Shown here in pieces: positions 6,149 to 14,545 of a stretch of 64,000 nucleotides of DNA. Position 1 is the first letter of the stretch. Each line of letters opens with the position of its first letter. The stretch is taken from NCBI GenBank assembly GCA_965243135.1, contig OZ251539.1, positions 3,360,001-3,424,000 of the forward strand, given 5' to 3'. The position numbers and the translations under genes were made by a program. This DNA is from Alphaproteobacteria bacterium. Its GTDB lineage: Bacteria; Pseudomonadota; Alphaproteobacteria; MPNO01; UBA830. The notes beneath the pieces were generated by a model. That model was given only the letters and a program-made list of their open reading frames with translations. It searched no databases and was not told where the DNA came from.

Positions 6149-7263
6149 CCCGCAAACTCCCTTCTGATCGCTTCCGAATGCTCGCCGATCGCCGGAATCG
6201 GACCAAGCTCGCGAGCGTTCGCCGGCGGCGCCGGCATGTCGATCGGGCCGGTCGGAGACGCCACGCGCGTTCGCTTCAGGGCCGGATGGCGCGACAGCCC
6301 CGCGACGTCGTTCACTTCGCCGAAGGCGATGCGCGCGCCGCGCAAACGGCGGACGAGTTCGTCGCGCCCGGTCGCGCCGAAAACGCGATTGATTATCTCG
6401 TCGAAATCCGCGCGGTGGGCGCAACGCGCTTCGTTGTTCGCGAACCTCGAGTCTTCGGGAAGCTCGGCGTCGAACAGCACGTCGGAGCAAAGGCGCGCGA
6501 ACTCCCGTTCGTTCTGAATGGCGATCAGGATCGCCCCGCCGTCCGCCGTAGCGTAGGCGCCGTAGGGATGGATGGAGGGATGGTTGAGGCCGACCCTCGG
6601 CGTGATCTCTCCGCCGTAGTCGTAGTGCAGCAGCGGCACGGTCATCCAGTCCGCCATGCCGGCGAACAACGAGGTGCCGATGGCCGTCCCTTCTCCCGTT
6701 TTCTCGCGCGCGATGAGCGCCTCCAGCACCGCCATGTAGGCGTACATCCCGCACGAAACGTCGCAGGCCGAAACGCCCACCCGTCCCGGGCCTTCAGGCC
6801 GGCCGGTAACGGAGCAGAGGCCCGATTCCGCCTGAACCAGAAGATCGTAAGCCTTCATGTCCGAATATTCGCCTTCCGCCCCGTAGCCGGAAATGTCGAC
6901 GGTCACGAGGCGCGGATTGCGCCGCCGCAACTCTTCGGAACCGTACCCGGCGCGCGCCGCGGCGCCGGGCGCGAGGTTCTGGATGAACACGTCCGCACGA
7001 TCGATGATGCGATGGAGCAGCGTCTTGTCGCCCTCGTCCTTTATGTCGGCGACGAGAGATTCCTTGCCGCGGTTGAGCCATACGAAATACGCGCTTTCGC
7101 CGTGGACGACCGTATCGTAGCGGCGGGCGAAATCGCCCTCGGCGCGCTCGATCTTGATCACCCGCGCGCCGGCGTCGGCCAGCCGCGACGCGCAATAGGG
7201 CGCGGCCACCGCCTGTTCCATCGAGACGACGAGGATGCCGTCCAGAGGCGCGTCGCCGGACAT
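6145..7263 (-). CDS. family III CoA transferase (CaiB/BaiF)
   Basis: EQAVAAP, LADAGARVIKIE, WLNRGKES and KAYDLLVQAESG motifs; start MSGDAP at 7263. Confidence 0.93.
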   Translation of the reverse strand: MSGDAPLDGILVVSMEQAVAAPYCASRLADAGARVIKIERAEGDFARRYDTVVHGESAYFVWLNRGKESLVADIKDEGDKTLLHRIIDRADVFIQNLAPGAAARAGYGSEELRRRNPRLVTVDISGYGAEGEYSDMKAYDLLVQAESGLCSVTGRPEGPGRVGVSACDVSCGMYAYMAVLEALIAREKTGEGTAIGTSLFAGMADWMTVPLLHYDYGGEITPRVGLNHPSIHPYGAYATADGGAILIAIQNEREFARLCSDVLFDAELPEDSRFANNEARCAHRADFDEIINRVFGATGRDELVRRLRGARIAFGEVNDVAGLSRHPALKRTRVASPTGPIDMPAPPANARELGPIPAIGEHSEAIRREFAG

Positions 7264-8417
7264 CAGTAAGACCGCGGCAGACCGAGGACGTGTTCGCCCA
7301 CGAACGACAACACGAGGTTGTTGGAGATCGGAGCGATGCGGTAGAGCCGGGTTTCCCGGAACTTGCGCTCCACGTCGTATTCCTCGGCGAAAGCGAAGCC
7401 GCCGTGGGTCTGCATGCACATGTCGGCAGCCTTCCACGACGCCTCCGAAGCAAGGTACTTCGCCATATTCGCTTCCGCGCCGCACGGCTCTCCGGCCTCG
7501 AACTTGCGGGCGGCTTCCGCCACCATGAGGTTCGCCGCTTCGGTCTGCACGTGAGCCTCGGCGATCGGGAACTGGATGCCCTGGTTCTGGCCGATGGGGC
7601 GGTCGAACACGTTGCGGTCCCTGGCGTAAGCGGCAGCCTTGCCGATGAACCAGCGGGCGTCGCCGATGCATTCCGACGCGATGAGGATGCGCTCCGCGTT
7701 CATGCCGTCGAGGATGTATCTGAACCCCTTGCCCTCCTCGCCGACCAGGGAGTCGGCGGGAATTCGAAGGTCCTCGAAGAAAACCTCGGTGGTCGCGTGG
7801 TTGATCATGGTGCGTATGGGCTTGATTTCGAGGCCGTTGCCCCGCGCCTCGCGCATGTCCACGATGAACACGGAGAGGCCGTCCGTGCGTTTCTCGACCA
7901 TGTCCCGCGGCGTGGTCCGCGCGAGCAGCAGCATCAGGTCCGAGTGCTCGGCGCGCGACGTCCAGATCTTCTGGCCGTTGACCAGGTAGCCGGAATTGCC
8001 GTCCTTCACGGCCGTCGTTCGCAGGCTCAGGGTGTCGGTGCCGCTGGTGGGTTCGGTCACTCCGAACGCCTGCAGGCGAATCTCGCCGGAGGCGATGCCG
8101 GGCAGGTATCTGCGCTTCTGCTCCTCGGAGCCGTGGCGCAGGACCGTTCCCATGATGTACATCTGGGCATGGCAGGCGGCGCCGTTGCAGCCCGATTTCT
8201 GGATTTCCTCCATGATCGCGGCCGCGGCGGCGATCCCGAGGCCCGACCCGCCGTATTCTTCGGGGATCAGAACGGACAGGTAGCCGGCTTCGGTCAATTC
8301 CCGCACGAATTCCGTCGGATAGGCGCGTTCGGCGTCCCGCTCGCGCCAGTATTCGCCGGGATAGCGATCGCACAGCCTGCGCACCTGTTCGCGGATTTCG
8401 GAATGGTCTTCTGTCAT
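7263..8417 (-). CDS. acyl-CoA dehydrogenase
   Basis: FGVTEPTSGTD, NGQKIWTS, QTHGGFAFAEEYDVER; start MTEDHS at 8417. Confidence 0.95.
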   Translation of the reverse strand: MTEDHSEIREQVRRLCDRYPGEYWRERDAERAYPTEFVRELTEAGYLSVLIPEEYGGSGLGIAAAAAIMEEIQKSGCNGAACHAQMYIMGTVLRHGSEEQKRRYLPGIASGEIRLQAFGVTEPTSGTDTLSLRTTAVKDGNSGYLVNGQKIWTSRAEHSDLMLLLARTTPRDMVEKRTDGLSVFIVDMREARGNGLEIKPIRTMINHATTEVFFEDLRIPADSLVGEEGKGFRYILDGMNAERILIASECIGDARWFIGKAAAYARDRNVFDRPIGQNQGIQFPIAEAHVQTEAANLMVAEAARKFEAGEPCGAEANMAKYLASEASWKAADMCMQTHGGFAFAEEYDVERKFRETRLYRIAPISNNLVLSFVGEHVLGLPRSY

Positions 8418-8505
8418 TCTGAATTTCCCGGATGGATGAACGCCCTGTCGGACCCTCGCAACACTATCCAAAGAGAATTATATGTTCTCAAGCCGCAATC
8501 TATTG

Positions 8506-10749
8506 TTATTGAACATTTAAATGTTTGAGAATACTGACAGTGCTTTCTTGCAAATCTCTTTTCTCTTCGAATTGCAAAAACTCGTCGCCCGCTACAAGAT
8601 GAAACCATTTTGTCCGTTTACCGGATACAGGAACGTTATCTCGAATTTTTAGTCTATCGTACCGTTCAAGCAGCGCACAAATTTCATCCCAATGGTCTGA
8701 ATCGGTAATTCTTGTGGTATCCTCGTCTCCTTCTCTGAGCCAGTATCTTTGCATGGAAATGCGAGAAAATTTTTCAAGAAGCCTCCAACGTTCGTCAGGC
8801 ACCCCCTTTTCGTCCGGCTTATCAGATCGTTCGGCGATCCAATTCCTTATCCTATTAGCATCAAATATTCGCTCTTTTCTTCCAGAAACATCATGTAAAT
8901 TCAGCGACTGAACATTCGGTACATTATCTCCAAATTTGACGAACGGGCCAACGAACATTTCGTATGCTTCTACCTTGCGAAACGAAATACCGCTGAGGTC
9001 CGCATTTCCAACAACCAGTCTGCTTATTGAAAGATCAACCAATTCTCCCCTCTGCACCCCAATCTGGTCGGCCATCCAAACATCTTGCAATTGCACATTC
9101 TCCATAACGAAATCCCCTTCGGATTGGTCTTCCTCAAAAGGTATGAATGATAAAAGAAGACCGCCAAGATTGGAGGAAAAATATCCGATCGCGCTTCTCG
9201 TACGAAGGGCATCTTTCATCGATCTTCGAAGATCTATTTGCCTCGACACCGGAACGCGGCGAACAACGCTGTTGAAAATCCGAAAATCTTCAGCGTTAAG
9301 CGGTACACGATACATTGCATTCGTAGCGTTATGTTTCGGAAAATAGTTCAATATGTGTTTCGAATAGAAATATGACTTTATGATCTCGTGAGGAAATACG
9401 CGCACCCCGTCGTCGTTCACATCAATTTCAAAAAGGGCAAAACTCTCAACACGTTGAGCAAGCGATTTCTTGGTTTCCTCATTGAGGTGCCCTTCAAAGA
9501 CTTCTTCCGCGATAAGTCTCAAAAATTCCACGTCGATACGGTCCGACTCGTCATCCATCATCATTCGTGCCGCTTCCGACAGTATTGTCGAGTAAAGATC
9601 GGAAATAGAACCGGTATTCGTATGCTCCTCTCCTTGTGGTAACAATTTTTCGCTTTCCCGAATAACCATACCATCCATCAAATAGGAAATAGGATCCCCG
9701 CCGATTTCACTGTAACCGCTTGGTTCGAATTCTGATATTTTGGAAATGAAAAACGGGCGTCTTAAGTATTCAATGGTCTTTGTTTGCTCTTCTATCCGAT
9801 TTAGAACCTCTCTATTTTCACGCCCCTTCCATTTCGGCTTTTCGGAAAGCCATGCACGAATATCCCGTGGCTCTGGAAAGTCCAGATTTAATATTGTAAT
9901 AGCCGATTCCTTCACAGTATCCCCCATACCAGCGTGCACCGTCTCCCGGTTCAACATCGTATCCCGGCCTGCCAATATGCATGTGCCCTTGCCACCAAGA
10001 TCGCGTATGAAATCTCTCAACGCACCCCATGCCCGCTCGTAACCCCGACTGTCCGATAGCTCGTCGAATCCGTCTATCGCCACCTGAACGAGGTTACGCC
10101 TTACCAACGGCTTAAGCTCATCTCCGTAAAATCCGGCTTTTAGATTTGACAGAGTTCCAGCAATACGATCATCAAGTGCTGTAAGCACTTTGCCCAAACT
10201 CTTAACATGAAGAAGCAATGGGTTTCCAGATCTATAGGATAGCGGCAATGATCGCTCTCTTACCAGGCGCTCAATGAGCAAGGTTTTGCCAACACCAGCC
10301 ACTCCGTTTATCACAAAAATGTGAAGATCTTCGGACGATTCTTGCAGCAGCTTCGAAACATTCTCAAACGACAAATCACTCTTTTTTTCTGACTTTTCAC
10401 TTTCTGCATTTTTCCCAGAAACAATTTCGCCCCGACAAGCGATAAACGTTTTATTTTCGCCGCTCTTTTCGTCTATCAAGTTGCGCGTCTCATGTCGTTG
10501 AGCCATCGCGAGCCTTTCAAGATTGGCAAATTTTTTATTGAATAATAACGACCTGAAACTCATAAAATTCGACTTTACTCCGTCTGACGTCATTCGAATC
10601 CTGTCGCGATCTCTCACCAGACGAATTTTTTGACCTTCGCGCACCAATCTTATTGCCCATCCTTTCTCCCTATCAGCGTATTCAAAAGGTTCGAACGGAT
10701 CAGAAAAAATCCGTAAATCGTCAACTTCCGTTTGGATTTTATCGGTCAT
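8506..10749 (-). CDS. NACHT/STAND-like P-loop NTPase (747 aa), putative defence protein
   Basis: Walker A GVAGVGKT, Walker B VAIDGFDE, ILAGR sensor-like strand, RRPFF, winged-helix-like FPHEIIKSYF, pentapeptide-like C-terminal stretch; AT-rich. Confidence 0.75.
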   Translation of the reverse strand: MTDKIQTEVDDLRIFSDPFEPFEYADREKGWAIRLVREGQKIRLVRDRDRIRMTSDGVKSNFMSFRSLLFNKKFANLERLAMAQRHETRNLIDEKSGENKTFIACRGEIVSGKNAESEKSEKKSDLSFENVSKLLQESSEDLHIFVINGVAGVGKTLLIERLVRERSLPLSYRSGNPLLLHVKSLGKVLTALDDRIAGTLSNLKAGFYGDELKPLVRRNLVQVAIDGFDELSDSRGYERAWGALRDFIRDLGGKGTCILAGRDTMLNRETVHAGMGDTVKESAITILNLDFPEPRDIRAWLSEKPKWKGRENREVLNRIEEQTKTIEYLRRPFFISKISEFEPSGYSEIGGDPISYLMDGMVIRESEKLLPQGEEHTNTGSISDLYSTILSEAARMMMDDESDRIDVEFLRLIAEEVFEGHLNEETKKSLAQRVESFALFEIDVNDDGVRVFPHEIIKSYFYSKHILNYFPKHNATNAMYRVPLNAEDFRIFNSVVRRVPVSRQIDLRRSMKDALRTRSAIGYFSSNLGGLLLSFIPFEEDQSEGDFVMENVQLQDVWMADQIGVQRGELVDLSISRLVVGNADLSGISFRKVEAYEMFVGPFVKFGDNVPNVQSLNLHDVSGRKERIFDANRIRNWIAERSDKPDEKGVPDERWRLLEKFSRISMQRYWLREGDEDTTRITDSDHWDEICALLERYDRLKIRDNVPVSGKRTKWFHLVAGDEFLQFEEKRDLQESTVSILKHLNVQ

Positions 10750-11384
10750 CGTAAAACACCCCTATAGCTGTGAACGAGACTCTTCGCATGCGCCATGAAT
10801 TTGACGTTTACATTCGATTTTCTCAATAGTTTGACTTGTGCGCCCACCGCTTCTGCGGAAAACAAACCTGGTAATACATCGTCATCTTCGGAGACGACAA
10901 TGTATCTATCCGCCTCTTTACGCCACGCCAGAACCAGAAGGTCTGAAACCATAGCTGTGTCGACCATTTTTTCGCGCTTGCATCCGCCATCATAACGGAC
11001 CATATTCAACAAGTGAACGCCTTCCTTACGCGCCAGGCGGTCGCTTCTGCAAGCCAATTTGTCACCGGTTTGAATGCCTTCATTGCCTCCGTCGAAAACG
11101 CAATTCCCAAATCTTCTTGACGTTCTGGCGTAGTATTGCCTTAGCTTGTCGACGCCTCTTCGATAGTTCGTTGGAGTCTTCCCGCTCCACCATCCCGAAT
11201 ACAGACGAAGCCGCACCAGACACGGCGGCCGTCCAGACAGTTCTGTAAGGTATTCGGAAATTGCGAATTCGGCATATTGCAGAGCCATTTCAGCAATCTT
11301 GCGGTCTCGCTTCAACCCAGAAGCGCCCGACGCGATAACGGCAGTGTGCCAGTCAACAAATCCGATAACTTTTTCCGGGGGCAT
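10746..11384 (-). CDS. NYN/LabA-DUF88 (PIN-like fold) nuclease
   Basis: FVDW at the N-terminus, EKMVDTAMVSDL, IVVSEDDDVLP acidic motifs; ATGA overlap with the NTPase gene. Confidence 0.78.
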   Translation of the reverse strand: MPPEKVIGFVDWHTAVIASGASGLKRDRKIAEMALQYAEFAISEYLTELSGRPPCLVRLRLYSGWWSGKTPTNYRRGVDKLRQYYARTSRRFGNCVFDGGNEGIQTGDKLACRSDRLARKEGVHLLNMVRYDGGCKREKMVDTAMVSDLLVLAWRKEADRYIVVSEDDDVLPGLFSAEAVGAQVKLLRKSNVNVKFMAHAKSLVHSYRGVLR

Positions 11385-11759
11385 CGTCCATCCTAGCTGC
11401 GAGGTCCTCTGGCCCGATCTCGGAAGACCATGGGTGGAAATTCAGGGAGCTCCAATGGTAGATTGAACAAATGGAAATTTCAAGGGGGTACCCAAAAACC
11501 CCTGCGGTCGGCGGCGGAGAGCGGCACCCTTGCCCGCGCAATCTTCGTTGCGGATTGCGGGCGCGACAAGACCCTGCAAGGCTGGAATCCCGCCGCTGGC
11601 GTCTGTCGCCGCGAGTTGGCGCTTCTTCCGGGCGATTGTCCGGACCCCGCCGCCGCGCCCTCGACTTGTCGGAAACTACCTTCGGTCGGCGAACGCCTGT
11701 GGAGAATGCTGTCCCCGACCGTGCTATAGTCCGGCGTCCCGACACTGGAGGCTGGAAGC

Positions 11760-12929
11760 ATGTCCGTCGTCAACCGCATCGCCGAATTCCACGAGGAGAT
11801 GACCGCATGGCGTCGGCATATCCACGCCAACCCCGAGACCGCCTTCGAGGAACACGACACCGCCGACTATGTGGCTCTGAGGCTGCACGAGTTCGGGATC
11901 GACGTGCATCGCGGGCTGGCCGGCACCGGCGTCGTGGGAACCCTCAAGGGAGAAAAGGGGGAAGGTCCGGCCATCGTGCTGCGCGCCGACATGGACGCGC
12001 TCGACATCGAGGAGAAGAACGCGTTCGGCCACAAATCCCGGAACCCCGGCAAGATGCATGCCTGCGGCCATGACGGGCATACCGCGATGCTGCTTGGCGC
12101 CTCCAAGTACCTCGCCGAAACGCGGCGCTTCGCGGGAACCGTCCATTTCGTCTTCCAGCCCGCCGAGGAGAACGAAGGCGGCGGTCGCGTGATGATCGAG
12201 GACGGGTTGTTCGAGCGGTTTCCCGCCGAGTCGGTATACGGGATGCACAACGTACCGGGCATACCCGTCGGCGAATTCGCCGTCCGCCCCGGCCCGATCA
12301 TGGCTTCCTTCGACATCTTCGAGATAACGCTGACCGGCACCGGCACGCATGCCGCGATGCCGCATCTGGGCCGCGACGCCATGGTCGCGGCGGCGCAGCT
12401 CGTGACCGCGCTCCAGACCATCCGCAGCCGCACCGTCAGTCCGTTCGATTCCGCGGTCGTCTCGGTCACCCAGATGCATGCGGGCGACACCTGGAACGTA
12501 ATTCCCGAGGAGGTGGTCGTGCGCGGCACCACCCGCGCCTTCAAGGAGCATGTCCAGGAGCACATGGAGGCCGAAATCCGGCGCATTTCCGCCGGCGTCG
12601 CGGCCGGGTTCGCGGTCGCTGCGGAGACCCGCTACGAACGCCGTTATCCGCCCACGGTGAACGATCCGCGGGAGGCCGAACTCACGGCTCGCGTCGCGGG
12701 CGACGTGGCCGGCGCCCCGAACGTATCGCTCGACAAGGATCCGATGATGGGCGCGGAGGATTTCGCCTTCATGCTCAACGAGAAGCCCGGCGCCTACGTA
12801 TGGATCGGCAACGGCCCGCGCGACGGCGGCTGCATGCTCCACAACCCGAATTACGACTTCAACGACGACATACTGCCGCTCGGCGCCAGCTACTGGGCGC
12901 GGCTGGTGGAAACCAGGCTGGAAGCCTGA
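11760..12929 (+). CDS. M20D amidohydrolase (hippurate hydrolase-like)
   Basis: RRHIHANPE, RADMDAL, MHACGHDGH, FQPAEE, GAEDF. Confidence 0.95.
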   Translation: MSVVNRIAEFHEEMTAWRRHIHANPETAFEEHDTADYVALRLHEFGIDVHRGLAGTGVVGTLKGEKGEGPAIVLRADMDALDIEEKNAFGHKSRNPGKMHACGHDGHTAMLLGASKYLAETRRFAGTVHFVFQPAEENEGGGRVMIEDGLFERFPAESVYGMHNVPGIPVGEFAVRPGPIMASFDIFEITLTGTGTHAAMPHLGRDAMVAAAQLVTALQTIRSRTVSPFDSAVVSVTQMHAGDTWNVIPEEVVVRGTTRAFKEHVQEHMEAEIRRISAGVAAGFAVAAETRYERRYPPTVNDPREAELTARVAGDVAGAPNVSLDKDPMMGAEDFAFMLNEKPGAYVWIGNGPRDGGCMLHNPNYDFNDDILPLGASYWARLVETRLEA

Positions 12930-12967
12930 CGGCGCCGCGCCGCCTGGTAACGGCAAGGAGAAGGCTC

Positions 12968-14545
12968 ATGGCGACCGATGTTTTCGCCGGCGTGCGGCTC
13001 GCGCGCTCTCCGGTTTACGGCACCCGCGGGATGGTGGTGTCCGGCCACTCCCTGGCGTCCGCGGCCGGACTGCGGACCCTCGATCGCGGGGGCTCCGTGG
13101 TCGACGCGATGATCTCGACCTCGGCGGCCCTGTCGGTCGTGATACAACAAGCGACCTCGCTCGGCGGCGACGCGTTCTTTCTCTATCACGACGCGGCCGA
13201 AGAAAAGACGATCGGACTCAATGCCACCGGCCATGCGCCCGACGGCGCGACGACGGACTATTACGCGGACGGCATTCCCGACCGGGGGCCGAACGCGATC
13301 AGCGTGCCGGGGATGGTGCGCGGATGGGAGCGTCTGCACGAGCGATACGGCAAGCTTCCCTGGAACGATCTGTTCGACGATGCGATCGGCCTCGCCGAAG
13401 CGCACCCGGCGTCCCGCGTGCTGACGGCCGGACTCGACCTGTTTCGGGACGACGTGCTCGCCGACGACGGATGCCGGGCGGCCTATTTCGACGGCGGGGA
13501 ACGCATCCGGGCGGGCGACATCCTGCGCCAACCTGCGCTCGCCGAAAGCCTGCGCGCGATCGCGGCGGGCGGCAGCGCCGCCTTCTACGAAGGCGATATC
13601 GCGGCGTCGATCGGAGCTTGCGTCGCATCCGGAGGCGGCCTGCTCCAACCCGGCCAGTTCGCCGGCTACGAGCCCGAATGGGTCGAACCGCTGTCGACGG
13701 ACTATCGCGGCCACGCGGTGACGGTCATGCCGCCCAACTCCTACGGCATCCTGATGCTGATGCAACTCAACGGCCTCGCGGCGCTGGAGTCTTCGCAACT
13801 CGCCGGCAGCGACGCGGATCGGCTGGATTACCTGATGAAGGCTATGCAGGCGGCCTTCGACCTGGGGCAGCCCTGCATCGCCGACCCGCGCTACGAGGAC
13901 GCGCAGGTCGACCGCCTGCTGTCGGCGGAAACCGCGCGCGAGTTGCAGGACAGCGTCGCGAACGGCGGACGCCGCGCGACGTTCGAAAACAAGGGCGGCA
14001 CGTCCTGCATCGTGCTCGCCGACGGCGAAGGCAACGCCATGTCCGTGGTGCAGAGCGTGTTCCACGTCTTCGGCAGCGCCTTCCTGGACCCCGGCACCGG
14101 CATCCTGATGAACAACCGCATGACGGGTTTCCGGGTCGATCCCGCCGACCGGCGCAAGGTCGCTCCGCGCCGGCGACCGCCGCACACGCTGAATCCCGTG
14201 ATGACGTTCCGGAACGGCCGGCCGAAATATCTGATGACGACGCCCGGCGGTCCCGGTCAGACGCTTTCGATGGTCCAGGTGCTGACGAACCTCGTGGACC
14301 GGGGCATGGAACTGACCGCCGCCATCGAATACCCGCGCTGGAGCGTCAGCCTCGGCGGCGACTTCCTTCTCGAAGAAGGCTATTCCGAAGAGACGGCGCA
14401 GGAGCTCGAGCGGAGAGGCCACCGCGTGACGCACGGTTCGGGCTCGTCGTATTTCGGATCGGCCAAGACCATCGAAATCCTCGACAACGGCGTTCTGACG
14501 GGCGCCGCCGACACGCGCCGGGAAGCGTTCGCGGCCGGGCGGTAA
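12968..14545 (+). CDS. gamma-glutamyltransferase family Ntn-hydrolase
   Basis: LGGDAF, SVPGMVRGW, N-terminal nucleophile Thr in GGTSCIVLAD, TGILMNNR, TPGG. Confidence 0.92.
   Translation: MATDVFAGVRLARSPVYGTRGMVVSGHSLASAAGLRTLDRGGSVVDAMISTSAALSVVIQQATSLGGDAFFLYHDAAEEKTIGLNATGHAPDGATTDYYADGIPDRGPNAISVPGMVRGWERLHERYGKLPWNDLFDDAIGLAEAHPASRVLTAGLDLFRDDVLADDGCRAAYFDGGERIRAGDILRQPALAESLRAIAAGGSAAFYEGDIAASIGACVASGGGLLQPGQFAGYEPEWVEPLSTDYRGHAVTVMPPNSYGILMLMQLNGLAALESSQLAGSDADRLDYLMKAMQAAFDLGQPCIADPRYEDAQVDRLLSAETARELQDSVANGGRRATFENKGGTSCIVLADGEGNAMSVVQSVFHVFGSAFLDPGTGILMNNRMTGFRVDPADRRKVAPRRRPPHTLNPVMTFRNGRPKYLMTTPGGPGQTLSMVQVLTNLVDRGMELTAAIEYPRWSVSLGGDFLLEEGYSEETAQELERRGHRVTHGSGSSYFGSAKTIEILDNGVLTGAADTRREAFAAGR

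Follow-up and report, generated by a model that had tools for sequence, protein, structure and literature searches.

A mobile gene pair of an NYN-type nuclease and a NACHT-like NTPase as a candidate NLR-like immune module in bacteria

In a 64,000-nucleotide stretch of DNA from an alphaproteobacterium (the window; contig OZ251539.1, positions 3,360,001 to 3,424,000 of the forward strand, assembly GCA_965243135.1), two minus-strand genes form a compact cassette of 2.9 kb, in which a small NYN-like protein is encoded directly upstream of a large NACHT-like NTPase. The two genes overlap by the four nucleotides ATGA, an arrangement that an initial annotation of this DNA had pointed out and that was borne out when coordinates and sequence were re-read; judging by this layout, the genes are translationally coupled. 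The same annotation had placed the pair in an AT-richer patch amid catabolic genes, and indeed the guanine plus cytosine (GC) content is 0.456 over positions 8506-11384, whereas the flanks have 0.651 and 0.676 and the window as a whole 0.646. The neighbours are genes for an acyl-CoA dehydrogenase and a CoA-transferase III on one side and for an M20 peptidase and a gamma-glutamyltranspeptidase on the other. The cassette consists of the following elements:

10746..11384, minus strand: gene of a likely NYN/LabA-like PIN-fold nuclease, an open reading frame (ORF) of 212 amino acids assigned by Pfam and a BFVD fold match
8506..10749, minus strand: gene of a NACHT-clade STAND NTPase, an ORF of 747 amino acids assigned by predicted fold and the Pfam NACHT matches of relatives
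10746..10749, minus strand: ATGA overlap of 4 nt joining the NYN stop and the NACHT start (TCAT on the plus strand)

All motifs quoted in the initial annotation (FVDW, EKMVD, SEDDD, GVAGVGKT, AIDGFDE and FPHEIIKSYF) were found in the translations. For the small protein, NYN is the only family matched, in 32 of 34 relatives, with a best E of 3e-6; distant NYN partners score 23.4 and 24.0 bits against the Pfam model, and in the window protein the match covers residues 129-187. Residue conservation was counted over 78 NYN relatives and 64 diverse NTPase relatives, and the acidic residues D11, D142, D148, D167 and D169, which we take to be the catalytic positions of NYN enzymes, are kept as follows:

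11352..11354, minus strand: Asp11 (FVDW), where strand 1 ends; D in 56 of the 56 relatives that align here, with gaps in 22 more rows
10941..10973, minus strand: EKMVDTAMVSD motif (E138, D142, D148), with EKMVD at amino acids 138-142; D142 in 76 of 78, D148 in 75 of 78
10878..10892, minus strand: SEDDD motif, amino acids 165-169 (D167, D169); D167 in 76 of 78, D169 in 76 of 78

Because all acidic residues of the NYN catalytic type are conserved, an active nuclease is argued for, and the small protein is likely an NYN-type nuclease, if not proven to be one by its fold. NYN enzymes are usually RNases. The structural model of the protein (predicted local distance difference test score, pLDDT, 79.6) found in BFVD, as its second match, a LabA-like/DUF88 protein (E 1.2e-3, TMt 0.62), with NYN, PIN, FEN-1 and XRN proteins lower in the list, and a search of the PDB with the NYN sequence profile returned only a chance-level match to a 3C protease. 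Of the earlier description of the protein as NYN/PIN-like, the family and the acidic residues thus stand, while the score and the fold match remain weak, as weighed below.

The larger protein is assigned more firmly by its fold than by its sequence. Its AlphaFold2 model (pLDDT 83.2, predicted template modelling score 0.72) gave 125 Foldseek matches at E<=1e-3 in the PDB, of which the best was NOD2 (5irm, 7.5e-11), followed by NLRC4, NLRP3/7/2/14/9 and NAIP5 and then by ORC, Apaf-1 and plant NLRs; the sequence profile reached NLRP3 in the PDB at a non-significant E of 0.13. Pfam NACHT (PF05729) is the top family for the relatives, 32 of 34 matching at E<=0.01 (best 1.3e-8). The protein conforms to the consensus of both Walker A (GxxGxGK[ST]) and Walker B (hhhhDGxDE), and it shows the succession of nucleotide-binding domain (NBD), first helical domain (HD1) and winged-helix domain (WHD) of solved NLRs, including the WHD histidine, which lies in the motif FPHEIIKSYF at amino acids 452-461. 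The assignment to the NACHT/STAND NTPases, made from sequence alone in the initial annotation, is therefore upheld by the NLR fold and the intact Walker motifs. Its parts are:

10372..10749, minus strand: N-terminal domain, amino acids 1-126; beta-rich with helices in the model, fold unassigned
9880..10368, minus strand: NBD, amino acids 128-290, from the model; sensor-1-like R262 kept in 64 of 64
10282..10305, minus strand: Walker A GVAGVGKT, amino acids 149-156; G149, A151, G152, G154 and K155 each in 64 of 64
10060..10080, minus strand: Walker B AIDGFDE, amino acids 224-230; D226, D229 and E230 each in 64 of 64
9145..9870, minus strand: helical and winged-helix region, amino acids 294-535, from the model; F452 in 64 of 64, H454 of FPHE in 58 of 64
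9307..9576, minus strand: predicted NYN-docking surface with the EAARMMMDDE motif, amino acids 392-481, from the complex model; E392 in 63 of 64, A394 in 64 of 64
8866..9108, minus strand: beta-rich module, amino acids 548-628, a candidate sensor part by its strand pattern in the model
8509..8859, minus strand: C-terminal alpha/beta domain, amino acids 631-747, a candidate sensor part from the model

Both ends of the NTPase depart from the tripartite layout, in which an effector can be recognised at the N-terminus and the C-terminus is a sensor made of repeats. That the N-terminus carries no effector that can be recognised had been stated before and holds for about 126 amino acids, which match no Pfam family at E<=1 and reach a best Atlas score of 0.83, below lead level; among relatives, however, this domain has the invariant residues E8, D17, P18, F19, E20, W31 and R37, including a DPFE motif. 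At the other end, the suggested pentapeptide-like region was not confirmed: Pfam gave no Pentapeptide match at E<=1 and none to LRR, TPR or WD40 families in the window NTPase, and what the model has in this region is the beta-rich module of residues 548-628. The C-terminal 212 amino acids match no family, the best Atlas score of the alpha/beta domain is 0.79, which is no lead, and the family scan detected no DNA-binding domain in the NTPase. One metagenomic relative (P0005, 1075 amino acids) consists of a partial NBD-helical copy, corresponding to window residues 135-464, joined in frame to a complete copy; as an NYN-NTPase fusion it was ruled out, and it represents either a tandem duplication of part of the NTPase or a mis-assembly.

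The two genes belong together well beyond this genome. A word-indexed search yielded 234 relatives for the NTPase and 94 for the NYN protein, with 19 "longest contig" sizes occurring in both sets, and the pairing was then surveyed at 80 NTPase loci from a collection holding one genome per species, with the NYN gene sought by profile. A NYN homologue lies directly upstream and on the same strand in 76 of the 80. These pairs are spread over at least eight phyla (Pseudomonadota, Acidobacteriota, Spirochaetota, Myxococcota, Bacteroidota, Bacillota, Desulfobacterota and Actinomycetota), with hosts among the Alpha-, Beta- and Gammaproteobacteria, Vicinamibacterales, Holophagales, Spirochaetia, Polyangiaceae, Desulfobacterales, Bacteroidota, Lachnospiraceae and Actinomycetota. 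Wherever the distance could be computed (65 of 65 loci), the predicted NTPase start lies between -34 and +26 nt from the NYN stop, and in 30 of the 65 at exactly -4. Pairwise identities of the two proteins correlate with r=0.885, a value reached in 0 of 500 label permutations, which shows, at the level of sequence, co-inheritance and not co-evolution as such. The co-occurrence anticipated when the pair was first described is thereby well documented. An exhaustive NTPase profile search of 1.84 billion representatives found 232 clusters at E<=1e-30, 712 at 1e-10 and 909 at 1e-3; full-length members are uniformly about 710-775 amino acids long, and a search for fused forms turned up no longer protein that contains the NYN domain, which is weak evidence.

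The four loci at which the NYN gene was missed are of different kinds. At two (L016 and L063) the NTPase gene is cut at its 5' end. A third (L012:7923-10244) has a solitary NTPase homologue of about 47% identity with no NYN gene, and upstream of it, on the other strand, lies a gene for a luciferase-like monooxygenase. In the fourth, a metagenome-assembled genome of the Pseudomonadales (L034), the NYN slot is taken by a DUF1643 gene (PF07799, E 6.1e-37; 7468-7980, plus strand), and the NTPase gene (7977-10205) overlaps it by 4 nt at start and stop, just as it does the NYN gene elsewhere. The DUF1643 protein may be a swapped output module; no function of DUF1643 was found in the literature. At four further loci (L002, L004, L028 and L046) two ORFs share the NYN match between them, and the NTPase ORF is intact. 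These split genes sit upstream of position ~8001 (~1476 in L046), and the halves in L004 are ~1.2 kb apart with a 397-amino-acid ORF between them; frameshifts, an insertion or assembly errors could account for the splitting.

Structure prediction points to physical contact between the two proteins. The model of the full NTPase with the NYN protein reached an interface score (ipSAE) of 0.66 (0.68, 0.66 and 0.63 in the individual runs), against 0.01 for the best of three controls, and at least 88% of contacts are shared between the runs, with a partner pLDDT of at least 83. Among solved complexes, 58 of 80 reach the ipSAE mark applied, and among mismatched pairs 2 of 110, a calibration that holds only roughly here, our own alignments having served as input. 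The binding that had been proposed is thus predicted, at a place other than the one proposed: not on the N-terminal domain of the NTPase, but on the region of the WHD and the second helical domain (HD2), where residues 392-416, including EAARMMMDDE, 448, 469-481 and 521-522 meet residues 1-5, 53-56, 88-98 and 154-159 of the NYN protein, away from its active-site residues. The interface segments covary by clade, ARMMMDDE going with xRKEADR and ARD[LM]AE[ND]Q with xxDPxxW; this is what is expected of co-inherited partners and is not independent proof. From the model we consider that the NYN protein and the NTPase probably form a complex.

The position of the nuclease in this model bears on which part of the pair acts as output. 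In described bacterial NACHT proteins, as far as the accessible text of the preprint goes, the effector is at the N-terminus (Kibby et al., 2022, bioRxiv 10.1101/2022.07.19.500537), and the invariant residues of the N-terminal domain, together with the predicted docking of the NYN protein on the regulatory WHD/HD2 lid and not on the N-terminus, would fit an arrangement in which amino acids 1-126 of the NTPase are the true output and the NYN protein is an accessory, for example a co-sensor that binds RNA, a processing enzyme or a factor regulating the switch. We regard this as unlikely, however: the N-terminal domain matches no enzyme or pore family, whereas the catalytic-type acidic residues of the NYN protein are all conserved, and the DUF1643 gene, with the same 4-nt overlap in the NYN slot, resembles an exchanged output module.

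Several observations describe the cassette as an addition to its surroundings, beginning with the sites at which it is absent. Window positions 7000-13000 were searched against 21 related genomes, and in 20 of these the two flanking genes were matched, while the 3.3 kb between them occur only in the window's own genome (G000). In G003, G006, G007, G010, G011, G012 and G017 the flanking genes are spaced ~140-360 bp apart and in G013 ~925 bp, compared with 3341 bp in the window. Because the flanking genes are nearly adjacent in related genomes, the cassette is an insertion, the ends of which were set by pairwise blastn against the empty-site genomes:

8418..11758, no strand assigned: inserted segment without counterpart at the empty sites of relatives; homology ends at 8417 and restarts at 11759

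The low-GC core of the insert extends from about 8480 to 11400 in the GC profile. No meaningful direct or inverted repeats flank the insert, and promoter-like and terminator-like sites at the cassette occur at chance level only; one promoter-like site for the cassette, at 11483-11455 (minus strand), is a consensus match only. Positions 11400-11758, which separate the NYN start from the M20 peptidase gene, comprise ~360 bp of GC-rich noncoding DNA without alignment to the short stretch between the flanking genes in the empty-site genomes. In two genomes of the same genus the cassette site, between the acyl-CoA dehydrogenase and M20 peptidase genes, is occupied by other inserts, of 8.1 kb (G001:C48:6152-14250) and 5.7 kb (G002:C2:971877-977542); the former has native GC, and its ORF sizes resemble those of an ABC transporter operon. 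The site thus seems permissive for insertions.

Distribution and composition agree with acquisition from elsewhere. By protein profile (E<=1e-20) the NTPase family is present in 1 of 78 genomes of the order, namely G000 itself, which has in addition a second NYN and NACHT-like pair (C1, about 1386232-1389158; L092:6232-9158, plus strand). The NTPase of this second pair is 27% identical to that of the window, and it too lies in a low-GC patch, of 0.50-0.57 versus 0.67-0.70. Foreign GC is found in many other hosts (0.51 versus 0.68 in L001, 0.46 versus 0.63 in L029 and 0.41 versus 0.57 in L048). On such sequence evidence the cassette is horizontally acquired, mobile and accessory.

These findings speak to a further explanation, according to which the pair is a housekeeping or regulatory unit of RNA metabolism outside any genetic conflict, comparable to the STAND regulators MalT and AfsR or to NYN RNases of RNA turnover. 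Its neighbours are mostly ordinary metabolic genes, and STAND clades without immune function do exist, according to the accessible text of a recent survey (Lee et al., 2026, bioRxiv 10.64898/2026.01.04.697583). Yet a family seen in a single one of the 78 genomes, with empty sites in close relatives, two divergent copies in that genome, foreign GC in the window and many other hosts, copies in prophages and no DNA-binding output domain detected, makes a housekeeping role very improbable.

The prophage copies come from the IMG/VR collection, in which 11 contigs carry the NTPase family and 10 of the 11 have the NYN gene, the eleventh (L097) being cut at the locus edge. At L095:8500-16150 and L104:3966-11665 the pair abuts baseplate and tail-fibre genes on the border of a myovirus-like tail module (with genes for a baseplate protein, a tail fibre, a tail protein and a baseplate wedge), which is a typical position for an accessory gene of a prophage, and the 109 flank ORFs of the IMG/VR loci include baseplate, tail fibre, endolysin, repressor, CII-like and integrase families. 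Of the enrichment in defence islands, a search for which was proposed at the outset, there is little sign among the flank ORFs surveyed at chromosomal loci, although some copies lie in prophages.

The combination of a bound nuclease and mobile carriage could also be that of an addiction module, in which an NYN toxin is restrained through stoichiometric binding by the NTPase; the pair would persist because its loss, or a shut-off of host expression, sets the nuclease free, any effect on phages being secondary. The predicted 1:1 complex with an interface off the active-site residues of the nuclease would suit such a toxin-antitoxin-like module, as would the tight coupling of the genes and the solitary, mobile, low-GC nature of a cassette that usually lacks adjoining defence genes. 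However, a STAND NTPase of 747 amino acids with strictly conserved Walker A and B, sensor-1 and WHD histidine far exceeds what sequestration needs, and where type II systems have a small, labile, autoregulating antitoxin, the partner here is this large NTPase without a detected DNA-binding domain. The solitary NACHT-like gene in L012 does without an NYN partner altogether, and the four loci with a split NYN gene and an intact NTPase show the opposite of antitoxin loss, though they are compatible with loss of a toxin. We therefore consider addiction improbable as the primary function.

The reading that we favour, and hold to be rather probable, is that the cassette is a mobile NLR-like immune module of two genes, in which the NYN nuclease is encoded separately and acts as the effector. 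It is favoured because the pairing is conserved, the NTPase combines an NLR fold with intact motifs, the two proteins are modelled as a complex and the cassette is accessory and mobile, as its carriage on IMG/VR contigs, its occurrence in 1 of 78 genomes, the empty sites and its GC content all indicate. We infer the defence role itself, and likewise RNase activity, abortive infection and protection from phage.

Several points weigh against this reading. It is based on computation, and defence, nuclease and ATPase activities are predictions. In the window proteins, the Pfam matches fall below the gathering scores, at 18.1 bits versus 24.2 for NYN (PF01936, E 0.0042) and at 16 bits versus 26.7 for NACHT (E 0.011), and the NYN model has no PDB match at E<=1e-3 in Foldseek, its best weak match being T4 RNase H (probability 0.87); the rough calibration of the complex score belongs here as well. 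The plasmid and phage-record collections held no tblastn match to the family. In 129 flank ORFs from 46 chromosomal loci, surveyed with crude gene calls of our own and no background control, the PADLOC matches at E<=1e-8 fell, among those listed, on a few ORFs only, with PDC-S01 and mad3 twice each and BrxL, PDC-S05, PDC-S02 and MTase_II once each, and the Pfam matches were mostly to housekeeping families, with 5 to integrase and 2 each to resolvase, transposase and TrbI. Finally, HEC-09, the only stand-alone NYN candidate tested, gave no protection against the phages tested, according to the accessible text of its description (Payne et al., 2024, bioRxiv 10.1101/2024.01.29.577857).

If the cassette is nevertheless an immune module, a sequence of events can be envisaged. 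In the resting state, the ADP-bound NTPase would hold the nuclease in a 1:1 complex, inactive or monomeric. A cue derived from a phage or another mobile element might be read by the C-terminal beta-rich and alpha/beta domains and lead to nucleotide exchange, rotation of the WHD/HD2 lid and then oligomerisation, by which the bound NYN subunits would be clustered or released. The NYN protein would then cleave RNA, and growth of the infected cell would stop.

A bolder proposal, which we put forward only tentatively and consider doubtful, is that such cassettes represent a distinct class of prokaryotic NLR-like immunity, in which a stand-alone and exchangeable output (usually NYN, at one locus DUF1643) is pre-loaded on the WHD/HD2 lid, nucleotide-driven movement of the lid gates the nuclease, and the N-terminal domain serves oligomerisation or a second output. 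Gating by the lid would differ from the clustering of a fused N-terminal effector, and, if the proposal is true, the clade-specific interface segments would insulate the two copies in G000 from each other. In most descriptions of bacterial NLR-like proteins, the effector is fused within one polypeptide; a family this widespread, with a separate nuclease subunit, would offer a simple, separable model for the control of an enzyme by a STAND switch, and it would extend the catalogue of NLR-type immunity by an RNA-directed NYN output. At 2.9 kb, the cassette is a compact system for trigger screens and structural work, and even if it is not defensive, it would be another functional switch within the NACHT clade.

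The pair corresponds to no named system in the sources searched, as had been supposed: neither the window proteins nor 34 relatives of each have a significant full-length match in PADLOC-DB 2.0.0, NCBIfam gave no match, and no published description of an NYN and NACHT/STAND pair was found in the literature searched. What PADLOC returned were weak P-loop or NYN-core matches, to PDC-M16A (1e-4, residues 129-165) and NYN PDLC01154 (1.7e-4), to Avs2 models in 11 of 34 members of the NTPase family (best 3.6e-5) and to HEC-09, the best match of the NYN family, in 26 of 34 members (best 5.4e-6, NYN core only). HEC-09 is like the small protein of the cassette in being an NYN (MARF1-like) PIN-fold protein with conserved aspartates and a proposed role as RNase effector; in contrast to the cassette, in the part of the text accessible, it is a single protein with an N-terminal helix-turn-helix-like part, embedded in Hma systems and without an NTPase partner (Payne et al., 2024).

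Among the bacterial NTPases of immunity, the bNACHT proteins share with the cassette the NACHT core, the Walker A and B motifs and the WHD histidine, an accessory and patchy distribution and, in the bNACHT01 type, a C-terminal region that is short and not built of long repeats, as the accessible text has it (Kibby et al., 2022); the cassette differs in that its nuclease is a separate gene, conserved at 76 of 80 loci. With Avs/AVAST it has in common a STAND NTPase sensor that leads to a nucleic-acid-degrading output, and activation driven by oligomerisation would be expected. Avs effectors are fused, however, and their sensors large (Lee et al., 2026, accessible text), whereas the region following the WHD in the cassette spans ~200 amino acids and the effector is separate. 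The same survey distinguishes 589 STAND clades, having clustered only sensors of at least 400 amino acids, and its main text, supplementary clade tables aside, contains none of the words "NYN", "PIN", "operon" and "pentapeptide".

In its operon layout, a small nuclease with a larger NTPase and complex formation between them, the cassette resembles Gabija, Hachiman, Azaca and Menshen, which combine PD-(D/E)XK, PLD or Toprim nucleases with helicases of superfamilies 1 and 2 (SF1/SF2) or ABC-type NTPases (Ragucci et al., 2025, bioRxiv 10.1101/2025.07.10.664194). In the accessible text of that work, complex formation is universal in 16 other nuclease-NTPase defence systems, and none of the 16 pairs an NYN nuclease with a STAND/NACHT NTPase. 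The closest structural counterparts of the NTPase are the animal NLRs NOD2, NLRC4 and NLRP3 (Foldseek E 7.5e-11 to 1e-8), which share its NBD-HD1-WHD-HD2 order and the WHD histidine. In contrast to these, the NTPase of the cassette has neither CARD/PYD nor LRR, its sequence similarity to them is not significant, and its predicted output is a bound nuclease instead of the recruitment of an adaptor.

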